Origin: an uncultured delta proteobacterium
GTDB taxonomy: Bacteria; Desulfobacterota; WTBG01
Assembly: GCA_963752035.1 (NCBI GenBank)
Contig: CAVVWZ010000098.1
Location: 8,461-72,460 of the forward strand
DNA length: 64,000 nucleotides
Reading direction: 5' to 3'
Part shown: positions 22,168 through 36,358 of the stretch, one piece after another
How the letters are laid out: every line of letters starts with the position of its first letter
Position numbering within the stretch: position 1 is the first letter of the stretch
Translations under genes and position numbers: made by a program
Notes under the pieces: model-generated
The model's input: the letters and a program-made list of their open reading frames with translations, nothing else
What the model was told of the DNA's origin: nothing
Databases searched by the model: none

Positions 22168-23118
22168 TTAATTGACGGCTACAATAGCATCCACCATAGC
22201 AACCACCCGCTTCATTTTCTTTACATCGTGGACTCGAACCATACGGGCTCCATTGTTAACAGCCACCGCAAGAGCCGCTGCAGTGCCCTCTTCCCGCTCA
22301 TCTACCCCGAGGTTAAGGACATGCCCAATAAAGGCCTTCCGCGAGAGACCAACTAAAATTGGTTTTCCTAAGGGCTTTAAAGCAGCCAGATTTTTAATAA
22401 TCGTGAGATTTCCATCAGGAAGGGATTTACCAAAACCAATGCCGGGATCAATAATGATCTGGTGGGGATTAATCCCCGCTGACTCAGCAAACGCTATCCT
22501 TTCCTTAAGAAAATCAAAGATTTCAGAAATGAGAGTATCATATACCACCTGATCTTGCATAGTTTGAGGGGTCCCTCGCATATGCATCAAAATCACCGGC
22601 ACCTTGTGTTCAGCGGCAAGATGCGCCATCCCGGGTTCAAACCGGAAGCTGCTAATATCATTAATCATTACAGCACCTGCCTCAAGTGCTCCCTGAGCAA
22701 GGGCCACCTTTGTGGTATCAACAGAAACAGGCACATCAAGCTGCTGAGAAAGTTTTTCTACAAGTGGCAGCACCCGCCTGCGTTCTTCCTCTAATGAAAC
22801 GGGTTCCGCTCCCGGACGGGTAGACTCTCCACCTACATCAATGATATCGGCTCCTTCATCCACCATCCGCTTAGCATGATCGAGGGCAGAATGAAGGTTC
22901 ATGAACTTACCCCCATCAGAAAAAGAATCAGGAGTTACATTCACAATACCCATAATATAGGTTCGTTTATTAAAGTCAAATCTATATTTTCCACACCCAA
23001 AGAGTGGTCTGTTTTTTTGGTGAGGGGAGCTACCCGGGGCAACCCCTGACGTACTCATCACATCCTTCCTATTCGCAGGGGCATTGATCACAAGGACTTT
23101 AATCATCATGCCCTGCAC
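22168..23118 (-). CDS. folP: Dihydropteroate synthase
   Basis: IMGIVNVTPDSFSDGG, IIDVGGESTRPG, pterin-binding barrel motifs. The true start is probably downstream of 23118. Confidence 0.85.
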   Translation of the reverse strand: MQGMMIKVLVINAPANRKDVMSTSGVAPGSSPHQKNRPLFGCGKYRFDFNKRTYIMGIVNVTPDSFSDGGKFMNLHSALDHAKRMVDEGADIIDVGGESTRPGAEPVSLEEERRRVLPLVEKLSQQLDVPVSVDTTKVALAQGALEAGAVMINDISSFRFEPGMAHLAAEHKVPVILMHMRGTPQTMQDQVVYDTLISEIFDFLKERIAFAESAGINPHQIIIDPGIGFGKSLPDGNLTIIKNLAALKPLGKPILVGLSRKAFIGHVLNLGVDEREEGTAAALAVAVNNGARMVRVHDVKKMKRVVAMVDAIVAVN

Positions 23119-26925: not shown

Positions 26926-27120
26926 ATTCTATCACAAACAGAAAATTTTACAACTTAAAAACCTCATAGTTACTGAATAGTTAGCGAGACACAAAGAGTG
27001 CTCACCCCTTTTTTAGCTGCCTGGAACAGAGGATCATGATACTATATTCTTATCAGTAAAGAAAATAGATACCTTATTTTTAGGATGTTAGGAACCTCCA
27101 CCTGCTCCAATGGATACTCA

Positions 27121-27774
27121 ATGCCTATTCAAGCTGTGATCTTTGACCTTGACGGAACCCTCCTTGACACACTGGAGGATATTGCTGACTCTGCAAACAG
27201 CATTCTTGCAAAACGTAATTTCCCCCTGCACGACCTTGATGCTTACCGCCAGTTTGTAGGCAATGGAGTCGGCATGCTCATTGAGCGTGCCCTGCCTCAA
27301 GAGAAGAGAACTACCGCTACCATCAATGAATGTGTACAGGCATTTCGAGATGAGTACGCAGTCAACTGGAACAACAAGACAAAACCATACAGCGGCGTAT
27401 TTGAACTGCTGGATGCACTAACGTCCCGCCACCTCAAGCTAGCGGTACTTTCCAACAAGCCGGACGACTTCACAAAAAGGTGTGTGAGTGAATACCTGTC
27501 ACAATGGCCGTTCGAAATAGTCAAAGGTTTAAACAGCAGCACTCCGCCAAAACCGGACCCTACAGGTGCACAGCAGATAGCCGACCATCTTAAAATCCAA
27601 CCTTCAGACATCCTTTTCCTCGGTGACAGTGGAGTAGATATGAAAACGGCTATCGCTGCGGGGATGTTTCCGGTAGGTGCACTCTGGGGTTTCAAGCCAC
27701 GAGCGGAACTGGAGCATAATGGAGTACAGGCACTTATTGAACACCCTCAAGAACTGCTGACCTTACTCACCTAA
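27121..27774 (+). CDS. HAD-superfamily hydrolase, phosphoglycolate phosphatase-like
   Basis: Motif I VIFDLDGTLLDT, motif II LSNK, motif III GDSGVDM. I take the start at ATG 27121 (MPIQAV...). Confidence 0.75.
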   Translation: MPIQAVIFDLDGTLLDTLEDIADSANSILAKRNFPLHDLDAYRQFVGNGVGMLIERALPQEKRTTATINECVQAFRDEYAVNWNNKTKPYSGVFELLDALTSRHLKLAVLSNKPDDFTKRCVSEYLSQWPFEIVKGLNSSTPPKPDPTGAQQIADHLKIQPSDILFLGDSGVDMKTAIAAGMFPVGALWGFKPRAELEHNGVQALIEHPQELLTLLT

Positions 27775-27790
27775 AACGGAACAGGCACAC

Positions 27791-30143
27791 ATGAAAAAAC
27801 CAAAAAAGGTTGCTATTCTCACCAGCGGAGGAGACGCTCCAGGCATGAATGCAGCCGTCAGGGGGGCAGTAAGGGCCGCACTCAATAAGGGATGGGAAGT
27901 GTACGCTATAAAAGACGGTTACCGCGGCCTCTTAACAGGTGGCGACAGTATCTTTCCCCTGGACTGGGTTGATGTAAGCTGGAATTTTCGGGAGGGTGGC
28001 ACATTTCTTGGTTCAGCACGCTGTCCCGAACTAAAAGGAGAAGGCAGCCAGGCACGGGAGCTGAAAGAACAGGCCTTACTCAACTTACGGAGGCTCAACA
28101 TCTCCTCCCTGGTAATCGTAGGTGGCGATGGCTCATTAACCGGAGGGTATTCACTCTTCAGGATGTTACAAAATAAAGAATACACAAATCCCGAACTGAG
28201 AAACATGCACCTTTCAATAGTGGGCATACCCGGAAGCATTGACAATGATATCGCTTATACTGACATGTCCGTAGGGGTGGATACCACGCTCAATACCATT
28301 GTTGAATGTATTGACAAACTCAGGGACACAGCCACCTCCCACAGGCGTGTCATCATTGTAGAAGTCATGGGTCGACTCCGAGGCTATCTGGCCGTCATGA
28401 GCGGGCTGGCAACCGGTGCAGATCGTGTGTTTGTCCGCGAGGAAAAAATTAACCAGAACGAACTAACCAAACTGCTCCTCGTACTGCGGAAAAGCTTTGA
28501 TTGCGGGCAAAAGGCAGGCATTATAATCCGGTCGGAAGGTGCCAGGTTTTCCACCAGCTTTTTAAAAGAGACAATCGATGTGCTCCTCAAACCGGAAAGG
28601 GAGGTAAGGGAAACTGTCTTAGGCCACCTGCAGAGGGGTGGTAATCCTACGGTTTTTGAGAGAACCCTGGCAACCAGAATGGGGGTAAAGGCAATTGAGC
28701 TGCTGGAAGAAACCCACTGCAGAACCTCAACTGGTGGGCTTGCACGCAAAGACCCTCAAACCGGTCTCTCTGTCCAGATCTCTCACTAAGATTAAGACTC
28801 CCTCCTTCCAGGAGGATTTGAGTCCTAACACCAAAAGTGCCTTTCATCTGAGCAGAATGCTGGAAAACCCTCCCGAGGAAAAATACCGGGGAACTACTAT
28901 TGCCCTGCTCACCGATGGCAATAATGTTTCCGGGATGAACATGGCAATCCGTGCCGTAGCCCGGTTGGCTCTCAATCGGGGGATTGCTGTCAAAGGCATC
29001 AAAGGGGGCTTTCAGGGGTTTACCAGAGGCCTTGGAAGCACCCTGAACCTGGAATGGAGCATGCTTGAAATGAAGAGCATTCTGCGCAGGGCAGGCACAC
29101 TGCTCGGCGTCTCCAGCAGTGGATTCACCATGAACACAAACGGCTATGAGACCATTGCTCAACAGGTAAAACAGCTACGCATTGATGGACTTATCGTCAT
29201 TGGAAATAAGGCGGCCTACCATAACTCACACAAATTAGCGTCCCTGATTAACCTGCCGGTTGTGGGTATTCCTGCGGATTTAAGCTGTAATCTGCCAGGC
29301 ACAGACTGGGTAATTGGCATGGATTCCACCTTAAATGATCTTTTACAGGGTATTGACAGGGCAGCTGATGCTGCACATGTAAAGAGAAAAATCTTCATCA
29401 TCACCTTAAATGGAGACTACTGCAGTTGTTTAGTTAGGCTTGCAGCACTGGCAGGAGGAGCAGAGCAGTTACTTATTGAAGAGGACCTTTCGGGAACCAG
29501 AGGGCAAAATTCCTTCCGGAAGAAGGTCCGGCAGAGTGTTAGGGAATTGAAAAGGATGTTTGAAATGGGGAAAACATTTGGCACCATAGTCTTTGCCCCA
29601 AACCATCCCGAAGCAACAGAAAGCTCTATTCAGTATATCAAACAGGCTGTTGACAAGGCCGGTATTGCCCTTGATGTGACAGTCATCCCTCTGGAAACCT
29701 CATTAGGGGGAATCATCCCCACTGCCTTTGATCGCATCCTGGCCAAGCGGTTGGGAGAAAAGGCAATAGACACGGTACAGAAGAAAATCGATACTCGAGA
29801 CTATGCTTTTCAAACGGTAGGAATCAAGGGAAAAAGAATTGTTTCTCCCTATTATGAGGACAGTGAAGGCAAACACAGCCGCAGCTGTTCTAAAGTCCTT
29901 GAAAAGGATCTCCAGCGCTGTTTCAACCTTATGGCCCAGCAGCAAGAAGCCTGCATTGGCGTCGGGGGCACCGTACAGTGGGACGAAACAAGCAATGAGG
30001 ACAGTTGGCTTGGGAAATGGACCTGTCACAAGTGTGGACATACACAAAAGTTCCTCTTCAACCCAAAGAGAATGCACTGTGTCTATTGTGAAAAACCAAA
30101 CTGTCACAACTATGGGTACGTAAGAATCTCTCGTCGCCTGTAG
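27791..30143 (+). pseudogene. pfkA: ATP-dependent 6-phosphofructokinase fused (after one +1 correction) to a degenerate second PFK-like half and a C-terminal zinc ribbon
   Basis: First half has LTSGGDAPGMNAAVRG, VGGDGSLTG, PGSIDND and VEVMGR. Its homologous C-terminus (...PQLVGLHAKTLKPVSLSRSL...) lies in the frame of ORF 28695..30143, reached by skipping one base near 28712. That frame stays open into a second half with LTDGNNVSGMNMAIRAV, VIGNKAAY and GIPADLSCNLPGTD. It ends in CHKC-x14-CVYC. Confidence 0.7.
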
Positions 30144-30234: not shown

Positions 30235-30447
30235 ATGATGAAACCGAAAATCATTTTAGCGGCAGTTGTTATCACCGCCATTGTAATCATCCTCATTCAA
30301 AACACACAGGTAGTCACCGTGAGGTTGTTTTTCTGGAAGGTGAGCATGTCGCAAATCATCCTGATTTCCCTGACACTGCTTATCGGCCTTGTCATCGGGT
30401 TCATTGCCGCCACCTTTTTTAACAAGCGCCATAAAAAGGTACCCTAA
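30235..30447 (+). CDS. LapA-domain (DUF1049-like) small inner-membrane protein
   Basis: 70 aa, two TM helices flanking ...NTQVVTVRLFFWKVSMSQ..., basic C-terminal tail. Confidence 0.5.
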   Translation: MMKPKIILAAVVITAIVIILIQNTQVVTVRLFFWKVSMSQIILISLTLLIGLVIGFIAATFFNKRHKKVP

Positions 30448-31081: not shown

Positions 31082-32763
31082 ATGGCACAAGACAAACAGA
31101 AAACCAATTCTCAGACCATCACTTCAGAATACTCACCAAGTCCATCAGGAGAGATGTTCAACCTACCAACAACAGATGACTACACAGCAGAATTCGAGCG
31201 GGTAGAAAAGCTGGTTCAACAGGCCCGCAGTGAGGGCAAGGAGATCGTCGTGGTGATGGGCGTCGGATTCGTCGGCGCGGTGATGGCCGCGATCGTCGCC
31301 GACACGCAAGACGAAACGGGAAGCAGCACCAAGTTCGTCATCGGCTGCCAGCGGCCCAGTACGCGCAGCTACTGGAAGATCCCGCTGCTCAACCGCGGCG
31401 AGTCCCCGGTCAAGGCCGAGGACCCTGAGGTCGATCCGATGATCGCCCGCTGCGTCTAGAGAAGAAGACCCTGACCGCGACCTTACAACAGCGACTGCCT
31501 CAAGCTGGCCGACTGCGTGGTGTCGACGTGCAGTGCGACTACACCAAGCACGACCTCGGCAACATGCGCACAGGCGAGACCGAGATGGCCGCCCTCGAGG
31601 CGACCATGCGCACCATCGGCGAGAAGATCCACCCCGACTGCCTAGTGCTGATCGAGACCACCGTCGCACCGGGCACGACCGAGTTCGTCGCCTGGCCGAT
31701 CCTGAAGAAGGCCTTCGCCAACGCGGCATCGACGCCGAGCCGCTGCTCGCCCACAGCTTCGAGCGGGTGATGCCGGGCAGGGAGTACGTCTCCAGCATCC
31801 GCGACTTCTGGCGTGTCTGTGCAGCGGCTGCGACGACGAGGCCCGCGAGCGGGTCGAGACAGTTCCTGCGCGAGGTGCTCAACACCAAGGACTATCCCGC
31901 TGACGGTGATGGATCGGCCGATCGAGTCGGAGACCACCAAGATCGTCGAGAACTCCTACCGCGCGACGATCCTGGCCTTCCTCAACGAGTGGAGCCTGTT
32001 TGCCGAACGCAACGGCGTGGACCTGATCAAGGTCATCGACGCGATCAAGATGCGGCCGACGCACAGCAACATGATCTTCCCCGGCCCCGGCATCGGCGGC
32101 TACTGCCTGCCCAAGGACGGCGGGCTGGGCTACTGGGCCTACAGGCACATCCTGGGCTTCGAGGACGGCGACAGCGTCTTCAAGATCACGCCGACGGCCA
32201 TCGACATCAACGACACCCGGGCATTACACGTCGCCGAGCTCACCCGCGACGCCCTGCGCAACATGGACCGCTACATCGCCGGGGCCGATGTACTGATTTG
32301 CGGCGCAAGCTACCGCCAGGACGTGGGCGACACACGTTACAGCGGCACTGAGATGGTCGTACGCAAACTGACCGAGATGGGCGCCGAGATGCGCGTGCAC
32401 GATCCCTACGTCGATCACTGGTACGAACTGGAGAACCAGGATGTCTATCCGTCACCGGAGCTTTCCTGGAAACGGTTTTTTAGAAATCAGGAGGAATTAG
32501 GAAATATACGCATTCAAAAAGATCTGCCTTCAGCACTCAAGGACGTGGAAGCAGTCATTTTTGCTGTTCCCCACAAATCCTACCTCGATCTCAATCCGGA
32601 CGATGTGGTCTCATGGGCAGGGAATCCTCTCGCAGTAATAGACTGTTTCGGCATTCTGCCTGATGATACGATACGCAGGTACTTCGAGCTTGGTTGCGAA
32701 GTTAAGGCCCTCGGCCGGGGACATGTGCAGCGCATTAAAAAGGAGGTGCAAAAGCAGCGGTAA
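31082..32763 (+). pseudogene. Nucleotide-sugar dehydrogenase (UDP-glucose/GDP-mannose dehydrogenase family), fragmented, with a compositionally foreign core
   Basis: Rossmann motif VVVMGVGFVGAVMA, central ESETTKIVENSYRATILAFLNEW, catalytic GPGIGGYCLPKDG, C-terminal UDP-binding domain (ICGASYRQDVGDTRYS). The sense is spread over ORFs 30938..31459, 31528..31770, 31533..32351 (part) and 31813..32763. Confidence 0.75.
31200..32460 (+). other. High-GC segment embedded in-frame in a low-GC gene
   Basis: Hand counts of G+C per 60 nt: 24 (31081-31140), 28 (31141-31200), 35 (31201-31260), 41 (31261-31320), 41 (32101-32160), 38 (32341-32400), 33 (32401-32460), 20 (32461-32520). Codon third positions switch from mostly A/T to almost all G/C. 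Confidence 0.85.
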
Positions 32764-33653: not shown

Positions 33654-33992
33654 ATGATTGATGACACAATTTCAAAAATCGAAGGCAAACTAAAACAGAT
33701 CAAACCGAAAAAAGAAGAAAATAAAACCCAGTTGCTCAAGCTCCTTTCAACATTAAAATCAGAAGTTGAAGATCTTTCAAAAACCAAGGGTGAGCAGGCT
33801 GAAAGCATACTCAATTTTGCCGCACTTTCAACCCACGAAGCAACACGTCAGGATAAGGATAAGAACCCTCAGCAGTTACAGCTTTCCATAGATGGTTTGT
33901 CCTCATCAGTTGATGGTTTTGAGGCTTCACATCCAACCCTTGTGGGAACGGTTAACAGGATATGCGTCATGCTTTCCAATCTGGGCATCTAA
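33654..33992 (+). CDS. DUF4404-like protein
   Basis: 112 aa with the C-terminal pattern ...DGFEASHPTLVGTVNRICVMLSNLGI. The stop overlaps the next start (TAATG). Confidence 0.45.
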   Translation: MIDDTISKIEGKLKQIKPKKEENKTQLLKLLSTLKSEVEDLSKTKGEQAESILNFAALSTHEATRQDKDKNPQQLQLSIDGLSSSVDGFEASHPTLVGTVNRICVMLSNLGI

Positions 33993-34920
33993 TGAAATAC
34001 TTTTTCCTGTTCGCTGTTTTTGTCTTTATCATCACAACCCCCTGTTTCGGCCAGACCAGACCAGACCAATCTTCTGTTCTCTACGCAATTGCCGAGCTGC
34101 CTACCCCCGTATTAAATACCGCCGATTTCACGTTTGTCTTTGGCAGCTACCGATGGAAAAACCCTTCACCGTGATGACTCCGGTTTGATCCGGGAAGTGG
34201 AGTTTATTGCCCTGCCCGAAACAGTGTTTAAGATTGAAGAGGTTATCCCCGGCACTGCCCCTACCATATACCGGGTAACCACGGAAGACTACCCCTACCC
34301 TACCCGGAAAGGATACTTTATCGACAGCAGATTCGTAACCACACTCAATTATAAACCGCCCCGTCGATTACGAAAATTGCCACCACAAAGTGTTATCATC
34401 AACAATCTGCTTTCAGCCGAAAAACAAAGCTACCTGTGGGGAGGAAACTATAGGCAAGGCATACCACAGATGCTCACCTTTTATCCTCCACCCATTCCTC
34501 TCAGCCAGGACATCAAAGATCAGTGGACACTGAAAGGACTTGACTGTTCTGGCCTGCTCTATGAAGCAACCAATGGCTGCACCCCCAGAAATACAAGCTC
34601 CCTCATATCCTTCGGTGAACCGGTAAATAATAGCCACCTTAGATTCAGATCAGATCATACAGACACTTCAAACGTTAGACATACTAGTATGGAAAGGTCA
34701 TGTCATTATCGTTATTGACAAGGACCGGGCCATCGAAAGCCGGCTTGACTATGACACCAAACGGGCAGGGAACCAGGGTGGTGTCAGAATCCGTTCACTC
34801 AAAGAAGTACTTGATGAAACACTTGAGGAGCGGGTACCGGTCAATGAGTATACGGATGTAGTTGAAGGTGTGAAAAAGAAGTTTGTCGTACGCAGGTGGT
34901 ATAAACAGCCGAAAAGATGA
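33992..34920 (+). pseudogene. NlpC/P60-family (C40 peptidase-like) exported protein with two +1 frame shifts
   Basis: Signal peptide MKYFFLFAVFVFIITTPCFG. Catalytic-Cys context GLDCSGLLYEA and His context LDILVWKGHVIIVIDKD lie in different frames. Shifts sit at the A5 run 34157-34161 and near 34626. Confidence 0.5.
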
Positions 34921-35133: not shown

Positions 35134-36358
35134 ATGAAAACACTACCAATTATTCACACTTTGTGTATTGACCATTTTGGCAGTAACTGTCTGCACCTCC
35201 AGCATTTCTCTTGGAACACCTGACAAGGTAGACACCCAAAACCTTGTGGATGGGAAACACCACATTTGCCCTTGATCTTTACAACAAACTTCGTGAACAA
35301 GAGGGAAACCTGTTTTTCTCGCCCTACAGTATTTCAACTGCCCTTGCGCTGACCTATGCAGGAGCCCGTGGAAGCACTGCGCAGCAAATGGCCGAGGTGC
35401 TCAATTTCACCGGAGATCAGGATCAACTCCATTCCTCATTTGCCCATCTCCAGACACAGCTGAATGCCGAACAGGAAAAGGGGGATGTTCAACTCAACAT
35501 AGCTAATGCCCTGTGGGCAGAAAATGATTACTCTTTTCTGAAAGATTTTCTTGATTTGACCAATAAGCATTATAAAGCTTCTCTCATCCGCGTGGACTTT
35601 AAAAACAATTCAGAACAGGCACGCATACAGATCAACGAGTGGGTAGAACAGAAGACAAATAATAAAATCAAGGATTTAATTCAACCGGGCATCCTCAACG
35701 CCACTAACCCGCCTGGTTCTTACTAATGCCATATATTTTAAGGGTGACTGGGCAATCCCGTTTCGGGAGAGGTCTACACAAGACGCTCCGTTTTGGCTTA
35801 CGAGCGACAAATCGGTCACGGTGCCGCTGATGAGTCAGCAAGGAGGATTTTAGGTATGGAAAAAATGAAGCCATGCAGCTGCTTGAATTACCTTACACGG
35901 GGAACAACCTTTCAATGATCGTCCTCTTACCCAATGAGGTGGACGGGCTGTCAACGATTGAAAACACCTTAACGCAAGACAATTTAGCTTCCTGGCTAAA
36001 GCTTCTCAGAAAGCGCGAAGTGAGAGTATTCCTGCCGAAATTCAAGATGACTTCTGAGTTTAATCTGTCACGCATGCTTGGTGCCATGGGGATGCCCGAT
36101 GCCTTTACCCCACAGGCTGATTTTTCCGGTATGACAGGAAACAAAGACCTGTTTATCAATGCAGTAATTCACAAGGCATTCGTGGATGTCAATGAAGAGG
36201 GGACCGAGGCAGCTGCAGCAACCGCAGTAACTATGAGAATGACAGCAGTGGCCACCCCTCCGCCAGAGTTTCGTGCAGATCACCCCTTTCTCTTTCTGAT
36301 CCGTCACAATCCTTCGGGCAGCATCCTGTTTTTTGGAAGGGTTATCAATCCCATTTAG
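35134..36358 (+). pseudogene. Serpin (serine protease inhibitor) with a lipoprotein-type signal, interrupted by four +1 frame shifts
   Basis: AAGGAG then 7 nt then ATG 35134. Signal ...LAVTVC lies in the +1 frame. Serpin body: NTTFALDLYNKL...FFSPYSISTALALTYAGARGSTA, | TRLVLTNAIYFKGDWAIPF |, MQLLELPY...LSMIVLLP. Hinge EEGTEAAAATAV, C-terminal FRADHPFLFLIRH. Shifts near 35149, 35255-35257, 35706 and 35848-35851. Confidence 0.8.

Follow-up and report, generated by a model that had tools for sequence, protein, structure and literature searches.

A bacterial tandem 6-phosphofructokinase with a degenerate second half and a conserved cysteine-rich tail, most likely split by a single inserted base in an uncultured delta proteobacterium

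The DNA analysed here (the window) is a stretch of 64,000 nucleotides from an uncultured delta proteobacterium (contig CAVVWZ010000098.1, positions 8,461 to 72,460), and its positions 27791 to 30143 hold two overlapping open reading frames (ORFs) on the + strand that both resemble 6-phosphofructokinase (PFK). An earlier note, made from the sequence alone, had proposed that the two are one gene for a tandem PFK, in which a catalytic half runs into a degenerate half that ends in a zinc-ribbon-like tail. ORF 27791..28789 (332 aa) holds the motifs GGDAPGMNA, GGDGS, PGSIDND and MGR and matches the full 277-position model of Pfam family PF00365 (1-277; E 2.1e-93, 313 bits). The neighbouring + frame is open from 28686 to a stop at 30141-30143; it first reads ...KKPTAEPQLVGLHAKTLKPVSLSRSL..., also given as ...PQLVGLHAKTLKPVSLSRSL..., as a PfkA C-terminus would normally continue, and then passes through LTDGNNVSGMN, VIGNKAAY, GIPADLSCNLPGTD and ITLNGDY and last CHKC-x14-CVYC. 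All of these motifs lie where the note had placed them. Profile searches of each half separately, which the note had proposed as a check, gave a second PF00365 match in this frame (E 1.8e-51, 176 bits, model positions 2-276 of 277); both matches are above the gathering cut-off of 30.9 bits, and the E-value of the second means that this half is related to PFK far beyond chance. The other ORFs that overlap the region (four on the - strand, and 29839..30123 in the remaining + frame) have no Pfam matches, Rfam models found no RNA element anywhere in the window, and no promoter-like or terminator-like site between the two PFK ORFs rose above shuffled expectation.

Two independent, syntenic contigs, L001 (ENA ERZ25039514) and L084 (JGI 3300037489), carry the same gene at about 97% DNA identity to the window, in each case as an uninterrupted ORF of 2352 nt. 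In DNA alignments with both, the window reads CAC TGC AGA where the relatives read CAT T-CA GAA, and this is the sole length difference within the PFK gene. Deletion of the extra base, G28719, gives ...ELLEETHSEPQLVGL... and an ORF of 2352 nt (783 codons), identical in length to those of the relatives. The features of the gene as so corrected are as follows, where residue numbers refer to the corrected protein.

27791..28718, + strand: opening part of the PFK coding sequence (codons 1-309 and base 1 of codon 310), read in the same frame as ORF 27791..28789 and carrying the catalytic N-half with GGDAPGMN, GGDGS, PGSIDND, MGR and HLQRGG
28719..28719, + strand: one G that neither close relative has, as seen when the DNA is aligned with L001 and with L084, giving a +1 shift and a false stop at 28787-28789
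28720..30143, + strand: the part of the coding sequence that follows, from the second base of codon 310 through codon 783 to the stop, read in the same frame as ORF 28695..30143
28752..28886, + strand: linker, aa 321-365, in which the strands and helices that close the ancestral PfkA C-terminus (AlphaFold secondary structure) are followed by ...LENPPEE leading into domain 2
28887..29861, + strand: C-half pseudo-PFK domain, aa 366-690 (PF00365 E 1.8e-51, motif table and residue census)
29886..29957, + strand: bridge, aa 699-722, the invariant C699 followed by a helix that joins the C-half to the tail (alignments and AlphaFold)
29958..30140, + strand: cysteine-rich beta tail, aa 723-783 (family alignments; AlphaFold pLDDT 84-94)

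Two other sites for the shift, a homopolymer slip at GAAGAAACCC (28707-28715) and the AAA and CCC runs at 28710-28715, were ruled out, as the DNA alignment places it at the inserted G. The product is one long tandem chain, as the note had proposed, with a corrected length of 783 aa in place of its estimate of about 784 aa. Orthologues with the same fusion and tail, for which the note had suggested a search, are common: more than 45 full-length, uninterrupted homologues of 778-792 aa were found at 50-97% identity, and approximately 60 homologue clusters in the same range of identity share the layout of about 780 aa. Because L001 and L084 are uninterrupted and lack only G28719, the corrected ORF is equally long, and these full-length homologues exist, the region is read as a single gene. 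The deposited record (P0130) is identical to the 332-aa product of ORF 27791..28789, so that the record evidently called what would be a shortened part of the 783-aa protein.

Catalytic residues were followed by a residue census, in which 46 full-length members of the family were aligned with E. coli PfkA. The sequence taken for E. coli matches a Vibrio PfkA locus without gaps at 71%, which served as a check on it; its literature numbering equals the sequence index minus 1. In the N-half, G11, D12, R72, D103, G104, S105, G108, D127, D129, R162, M169, R171, E222, R243 and R252 (E. coli numbering) are present in 46/46 members and H249 in 45/46, and T125 is conservatively replaced by Ser. The corresponding residues of the family are D151 (from D127, the base), D113 and D153 (from D103 and D129, the Mg2+ ligands), R77 (R72), R195 (R171), S149 (T125), R186 (R162', from the adjoining subunit), R273 (R243', likewise), R282 (R252), E249 (E222) and G114 (G104), all in 46/46 members, and H279 (H249) in 45/46. 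The N-half also has the ATP-type G104/G124 signature (E. coli numbering), the second glycine being G148 within GIPGS; pyrophosphate (PPi)-dependent PFKs have D104/K124 in place of this pair. The intact orthologue, P0001, which is 97% identical, passes the NCBIfam equivalog model for PfkA, TIGR02482, at 457.7 bits (cut-off 371.35), and other members pass it at 421-452 bits. As judged from the alignment, none of the residues with which PfkA binds ATP, Mg2+ and fructose 6-phosphate is missing from the N-half (aa 1-320).

The C-half has a different fate. Its counterparts of the catalytic motifs are degenerate (DGNNVSGMN, GNKAAY, PADLSCN, LNGD and PLETSLGG), and at the E. coli positions D12 has become N, R72 S or G, D103 variable, D127 N, D129 N, R171 D or E, E222 R or K, R243 T or S, H249 T and R252 G; the last three, T/S630, T636 and G639, occur in 45-46 of the 46 members. 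The C-half (aa 366-690) is a PFK fold in which all catalytic and substrate residues of PfkA have been lost. Residues of the allosteric effector site of bacterial PFKs are kept, namely the equivalents of R21 and R25 (R387 and R391) and of K213 (K594), each in 46/46 members, and position 558 (E. coli E187) is E or D in the family and E558 in the window. There is in addition a strongly conserved, family-specific C-half motif, W.MLEMKSILRRAGTLLGVS. Mean pairwise identity within the family is 69% in the N-half, 54% in the C-half, 48% in the tail and 41% in the linker, which is the least conserved segment of comparable length; the values for the C-half and tail indicate that the dead half and the tail are both under constraint. 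We infer that the C-half is regulatory. The layout of one catalytic and one degenerate half, which the note had likened to that of eukaryotic PFK, is borne out by the census and by the predicted structure described below.

The chain ends in a cysteine-rich tail, in which family alignments show C699, G725, G726, W730, G741, W743, C745, C748, C766 and C771 to be invariant and N773, Y774 and R782 to be near-invariant. Most members end in NYGY(I/V)RISRRL, which is NYGYIRISRRL in the window. The note had described the tail as a zinc ribbon of the form CHKC-x14-CVYC, and it is indeed rich in cysteine and conserved; the ligands, however, are not those implied, since the first cysteine of CVYC (C763) varies across the family and the conserved pattern is CxxC-x17-C-x4-C. 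From the alignment, the likely metal ligands are C745 (codon 30024-30026), C748 (30033-30035), C766 (30087-30089) and C771 (30102-30104). In the AlphaFold model, residues 699-783 form the invariant cysteine, a helix and a five-strand beta module, with the four cysteines on predicted beta hairpins. Pfam zinc-finger models matched the tail only below their gathering cut-offs (best PF23477, 19.9 vs 27 bits), and a model of the tail alone (pLDDT 85) had no significant fold match in the PDB (best E 0.3).

A tail profile, run against 1.84 billion cluster representatives, matched 14 proteins at E <= 1e-3. Eleven of these were retrieved, and two more were already to hand as a full-length member (P0007) and a 483-aa family fragment (P0065); apart from P0267, which is a protein of Ig-like repeats, all are members or fragments of this PFK family. 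The remaining match, P0268 (2925 aa, 13 weak stretches), looks from its match pattern alone like unrelated repeats. As nearly all of the matches belong to this PFK family, the tail module is specific to it, and the note's remark that it knew of no zinc ribbon in characterised PFKs agrees with the absence of the tail from them. Two subclades depart from the common ending. Members of about 721 aa (P0050, P0052, P0055 and P0059) stop right after ...CF.LMSQ... and do not have the four-cysteine (Cys4) tail, and members of a neighbouring subclade, of about 785 aa (P0053, P0056-P0058 and P0060), keep the four cysteines with NYGYIRISRRL replaced by ...CTNYACIAAPG.... These subclades are natural variants for probing the role of the tail.

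An AlphaFold2 model built from a 30-sequence family alignment with no templates has a mean pLDDT of 87 and a pTM of 0.90. The best PDB matches found by Foldseek are the protomers of human PFKL, PFKP and PFKM and of yeast PFK, the first being human PFKL 8w2g_A (E 1e-52, TMq 0.80, TMt 0.85, 773 columns, 29% identity), whereas single-domain bacterial PFKs span only half of the model. Structure prediction, another check that the note had proposed, thus gives a protomer that superposes as a model on human PFKL, and the TM of 0.80 against the human PFK-1 protomer fits the eukaryote-like layout. From this match the two halves are predicted to pack as in the eukaryotic protomer. The N- and C-halves of one chain would form a pseudo-dimer, and two chains would rebuild the bacterial tetramer as a pseudo-tetramer. 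Two active sites would then lie at the N:N' interface and use the invariant cross-subunit residues R186 and R273, whose equivalents in PfkA reach across that interface. The N-C interface would house one or two effector sites, and the dead half would serve as a built-in regulatory subunit.

For the tail, the cysteine pattern suggests that the C-terminal Cys4 module probably binds zinc, and the module together with NYGYIRISRRL is most likely a regulatory or oligomerisation element. By loose analogy with the tail of human PFKL, it may act on assembly or on the balance of R and T states, perhaps under the influence of zinc or redox conditions, and the Cys4 site could make it sensitive to redox state or to metal. 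A bolder proposal is that the dead half and the Cys4 tail are a new sensory module, through which zinc occupancy or thiol oxidation of the tail would turn the enzyme on and off, and that the tandem design is either an independent bacterial re-invention or a deep sister of eukaryotic PFK; we regard this as speculative and rather unlikely. If true, it would mean redox- or metal-gated control of glycolysis in anaerobic 'Deltaproteobacteria' rich in multihaem cytochromes and, if the family is a deep sister, it would bear on the origin of the eukaryotic enzyme.

We consider, with a probability of roughly 0.8, that 27791-30143 forms a single gene, split by G28719, whose product is an ATP-dependent 6-phosphofructokinase of 783 residues and belongs to a distinct family of bacterial tandem PFKs; the G is most likely a consensus or assembly error and otherwise a very recent mutation. 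The note's reading of a single tandem PFK gene is in this respect upheld by the uninterrupted homologues, two of which are syntenic at 97% DNA identity. Several points weigh against the reading or parts of it. The insertion lies outside any homopolymer and beside a substitution (CAT T-CA to CAC TGCA), and the frame break was judged from assembled sequence, so that a real frameshift of the strain is possible. The ATP dependence, oligomeric state, effector binding and zinc binding of the family are all deductions from comparison, and the subunit origin of each effector-site residue is assumed from the PfkA literature. The subclade of about 721 aa, which does not have the tail, implies that the tail is not essential to the enzyme.

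A real and recent frameshift would leave the gene inactivated or reduced to a C-terminally damaged PfkA of 332 residues, on its way to becoming a pseudogene. The deposited sequence does have the shift, the 332-residue product is on record (P0130), the insertion with its accompanying substitution is atypical of homopolymer error, and several neighbouring genes are disrupted, which could mean a decaying region. Against L001, four nearby genes of the window are frame-broken (PFK, UGDH, a 309-aa gene and a serpin); the breaks cluster in 27.8-36.4 kb, and the genes upstream of PFK (17.7-26.7 kb) are all intact. The broken neighbours also count towards an assembly error, and the coding sequence itself speaks against a real frameshift. 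The 1.4 kb downstream of the shift has no further stop or indel, and against L084 the inserted G is the only coding indel in 13 kb. Downstream of the shift, codon differences between the window and L084 number 23 synonymous and 9 nonsynonymous, and those between L001 and L084, both intact, number 27 and 13; the ratio is like that of the intact pair and shows no relaxation of constraint. Local mis-assembly is suggested by the GC-rich patch in the adjoining UGDH. Furthermore, the PFK gene is broken elsewhere in other assemblies, near aa 350, 406, 624 and 730, and in three pieces in L085. Fragments of the same gene with differing positions come from long-contig metagenome assemblies (L085 4001-6079, ENA ERZ25039461; P0064, P0009, P0013 and P0133), and the NrfD gene beside PFK in L085 is likewise split, which together indicate frequent indel errors in those data sets and point to technical indel noise. 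A real frameshift is in our judgement unlikely.

Far less probable is a pair of functional genes, which the note had offered as its alternative (pfkA ending at 28789 and a pseudo-PFK from ATG 28857). Under this arrangement, a PfkA encoded by 27791..28789 would assemble non-covalently with a subunit made of the pseudo-PFK and zinc tail (from TTG 28695 or ATG 28857), much as plant PPi-PFK is built from a catalytic and a regulatory subunit. Each ORF is long and intact, the split is close to the domain boundary, and the arrangement fits the deposited call P0130, but the comparative evidence is against it. The end of the first ORF consists of about 23 out-of-frame residues where its own domain should have the conserved ...SEPQLVGL... 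strands, two genes with proper termini are seen in no relative (the splits elsewhere are at unrelated positions), promoter-like signals between the ORFs are not above chance, and by inspection there is no clear ribosome-binding site ahead of ATG 28857. The least probable explanation is a programmed +1 ribosomal frameshift at 28715-28723 that would give the full-length enzyme from the sequence as written, since, although +1 is the direction needed and an AGA codon follows the site (some bacteria are prone to +1 slippage at rare AGA and AGG codons), the site lacks conservation, the frame being continuous here in the two close relatives and in every other member of the family, CAC and UGC are unable to re-pair in the +1 frame, and no known shifty motif is present.

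The other broken genes of the window were compared with L001 as well. The gene for UDP-glucose dehydrogenase (UGDH; 31082-32760) is intact in L001 at 557 aa, and the window copy changes frame near 31456-31522 and contains in-frame stops. Its middle, a patch at 31200-32400, has 64-67% GC as opposed to about 45% elsewhere and is only about 84% identical to L001; it has the look of a chimera of the assembly or of a segment that is recombined or foreign. The 309-aa gene at 33992-34908, which is of unknown function, is spread over three frames relative to L001, and the serpin gene at 35150-36352 is in at least 3 pieces or frames and is in two pieces in L001 also. At 23084, near the 5' end of a folP-like ORF (22168..23118, - strand), there is a 5-bp length difference from L001; as the FolP protein of L001 aligns in full, this probably affects only the choice of start codon.

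The taxonomy of the host is judged from the names that homologues of FtsH and PFK bear. Among named relatives, the best for the window FtsH and for the family PFKs are metagenome-assembled genomes (MAGs) called 'Deltaproteobacteria bacterium' (DG_8, with 88% FtsH identity; MBN2108993.1). A scan of genome contigs with the family alignment, for which generic PFK motifs were used, returned only ordinary PfkA and eukaryotic-type tandem loci and no member of the family. The gene order in L001 is cdaA-folP-ftsH-tilS-HAD-PFK-.... In the window, a HAD-family phosphatase (27085-27774), which is phosphoglycolate-phosphatase-like and falls below all equivalog cut-offs, ends 16 nt upstream of the PFK gene, and L001 and L084 have the same HAD-PFK pair, which distant members of the family do not; a co-transcribed sugar-phosphate phosphatase and PFK would be an odd pairing. 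Just downstream of PFK lies a gene for a LapA-domain membrane protein of 70 aa (30235-30447; PF06305, E 2e-12), which is conserved in L084. A conserved neighbourhood or operon was considered and rejected, as HAD-PFK-LapA occurs only in close relatives and distant members lie in unrelated contexts. Loci of the family often adjoin multihaem cytochromes, NrfD and Fe-S proteins.

PFK is a textbook allosteric enzyme, and the tandem chain of a catalytic and a regulatory half is usually presented as a eukaryotic innovation. A full-text literature search returned nothing on bacterial tandem PFKs or on zinc-binding PFKs, and there was no characterised member of the family among the literature and database searches; in databases its members are labelled simply '6-phosphofructokinase 1'. 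A review of the PFK superfamily from 2025 describes tandem duplication only for eukaryotic PFKs, and the word 'zinc' is absent from it (PMC12203962). Our verdict is that the family is an undescribed variant of tandem PFK in MAGs labelled 'Deltaproteobacteria' and that its split in the window is most probably an artefact. For practical purposes, the deposited 332-aa 'PfkA' of the contig should be read as part of a 783-aa protein. The family is compact and bacterial and has the overall design of the eukaryotic enzyme; degeneration of its second half has been taken further than in that enzyme, with no sugar-phosphate site left, and a folded Cys4 module, family-specific among the cluster representatives searched, has been added. 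Being bacterial and tractable, it lends itself to the study of how PFK comes to be regulated by a pseudoenzyme half and a terminal tail.

Compared with known systems, the N-half alone amounts to a full single-domain PfkA of the E. coli and Geobacillus type (TIGR02482), at 44-49% identity. PfkA, however, is a chain of about 320 aa that forms a homotetramer with four active sites, whereas in the family half of the PFK domains are dead and covalently joined to the others, and a tail has been added. That tail shares with zinc ribbons and treble clefs (PF23477 zf_Tbcl_2, PF02318 FYVE_2 and PF00641) a CxxC ... C-x4-C pattern on short beta hairpins, and the weak matches have E-values of 6e-4 to 1e-2; all are nevertheless sub-threshold. 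The C-terminal tail of human PFKL stabilises the T state by binding across its catalytic and regulatory domains (PMC12203962). It is alike in being an extension past the second PFK domain, but there is no kinship of sequence or fold between the two, the tail described here being a folded module with four invariant cysteines.

Eukaryotic PFK-1 (animal PFKM/L/P and yeast Pfk1/2; TIGR02478 '6PF1K_euk') has the same general plan, that is, tandem PFK domains in one chain of about 780 aa with a catalytic N-half and a non-catalytic C-half. TIGR02478 aligns end to end (5-682 to 1-704 of 744), and the C-halves share a change of PG to PA and of D127/D129 to N/S and N at the catalytic loop. Members of the family nevertheless do not reach the TIGR02478 cut-off of 708.4 bits (P0001, 446.6; P0056, P0059 and P0025, 401-450). 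Their C-halves have lost R162, R243, H249 and R252, which eukaryotic C-halves keep for the binding of fructose-2,6-bisphosphate, the equivalents of R243, H249 and R252 making up its activator site; human PFKM and bacterial eukaryotic-type C-halves keep R...GH.Q.GG, and those of this family do not. The regulatory tail of the eukaryotic enzyme is unstructured, as opposed to the Cys4 beta tail of the family, whose host is bacterial.

The next-best full-length matches, at 33-36% identity, are eukaryotic-type tandems of about 745 aa from bacteria (Anaerolineae, Chloroflexota and others; P0086, P0077 and P0119), which have two domains and a similar length. They differ in that they pass TIGR02478 (849-1005 bits), do not have the cysteine-rich tail and keep MGR/MGG, GHLQ(R/Q)GG and GG..GY in their C-halves. 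The TIGR02478 description already mentions a bacterial member, and in a tree of separated halves these tandems bracket human PFKM. Outside the window, a protein of 681 aa (P0066) represents a third type of tandem PFK from bacteria; the N-half falls among single-domain PfkA proteins, the C-half shows partial degeneration (GDRDS, PAAIDNN and VAGE), and the protein fails TIGR02478 at 533 bits. It suggests that there are several tandem PFK lineages in bacteria.

All of the C-halves, from this family, the eukaryotic type and P0066, fall together in 199/200 neighbour-joining bootstraps. The N-half and C-half of the family group together in 0/200, and its N-half groups with eukaryotic-type N-halves in 6/200. 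Cross-comparison of profile hidden Markov models barely discriminates, with a slight preference of 166 vs 155 bits, and the N-half is 41-46% identical to eukaryotic-type N-halves, a range close to its identity with single-domain PfkA. It has an insertion between GGDGS and the PGSIDND loop, and eukaryotic-type N-halves have a longer insertion in the same place. With long-branch attraction a live alternative, we lean towards an ancestral duplication common to this family and eukaryotic-type PFK, and the family adds evidence on the question of whether the duplication seen in eukaryotes is older than they are.

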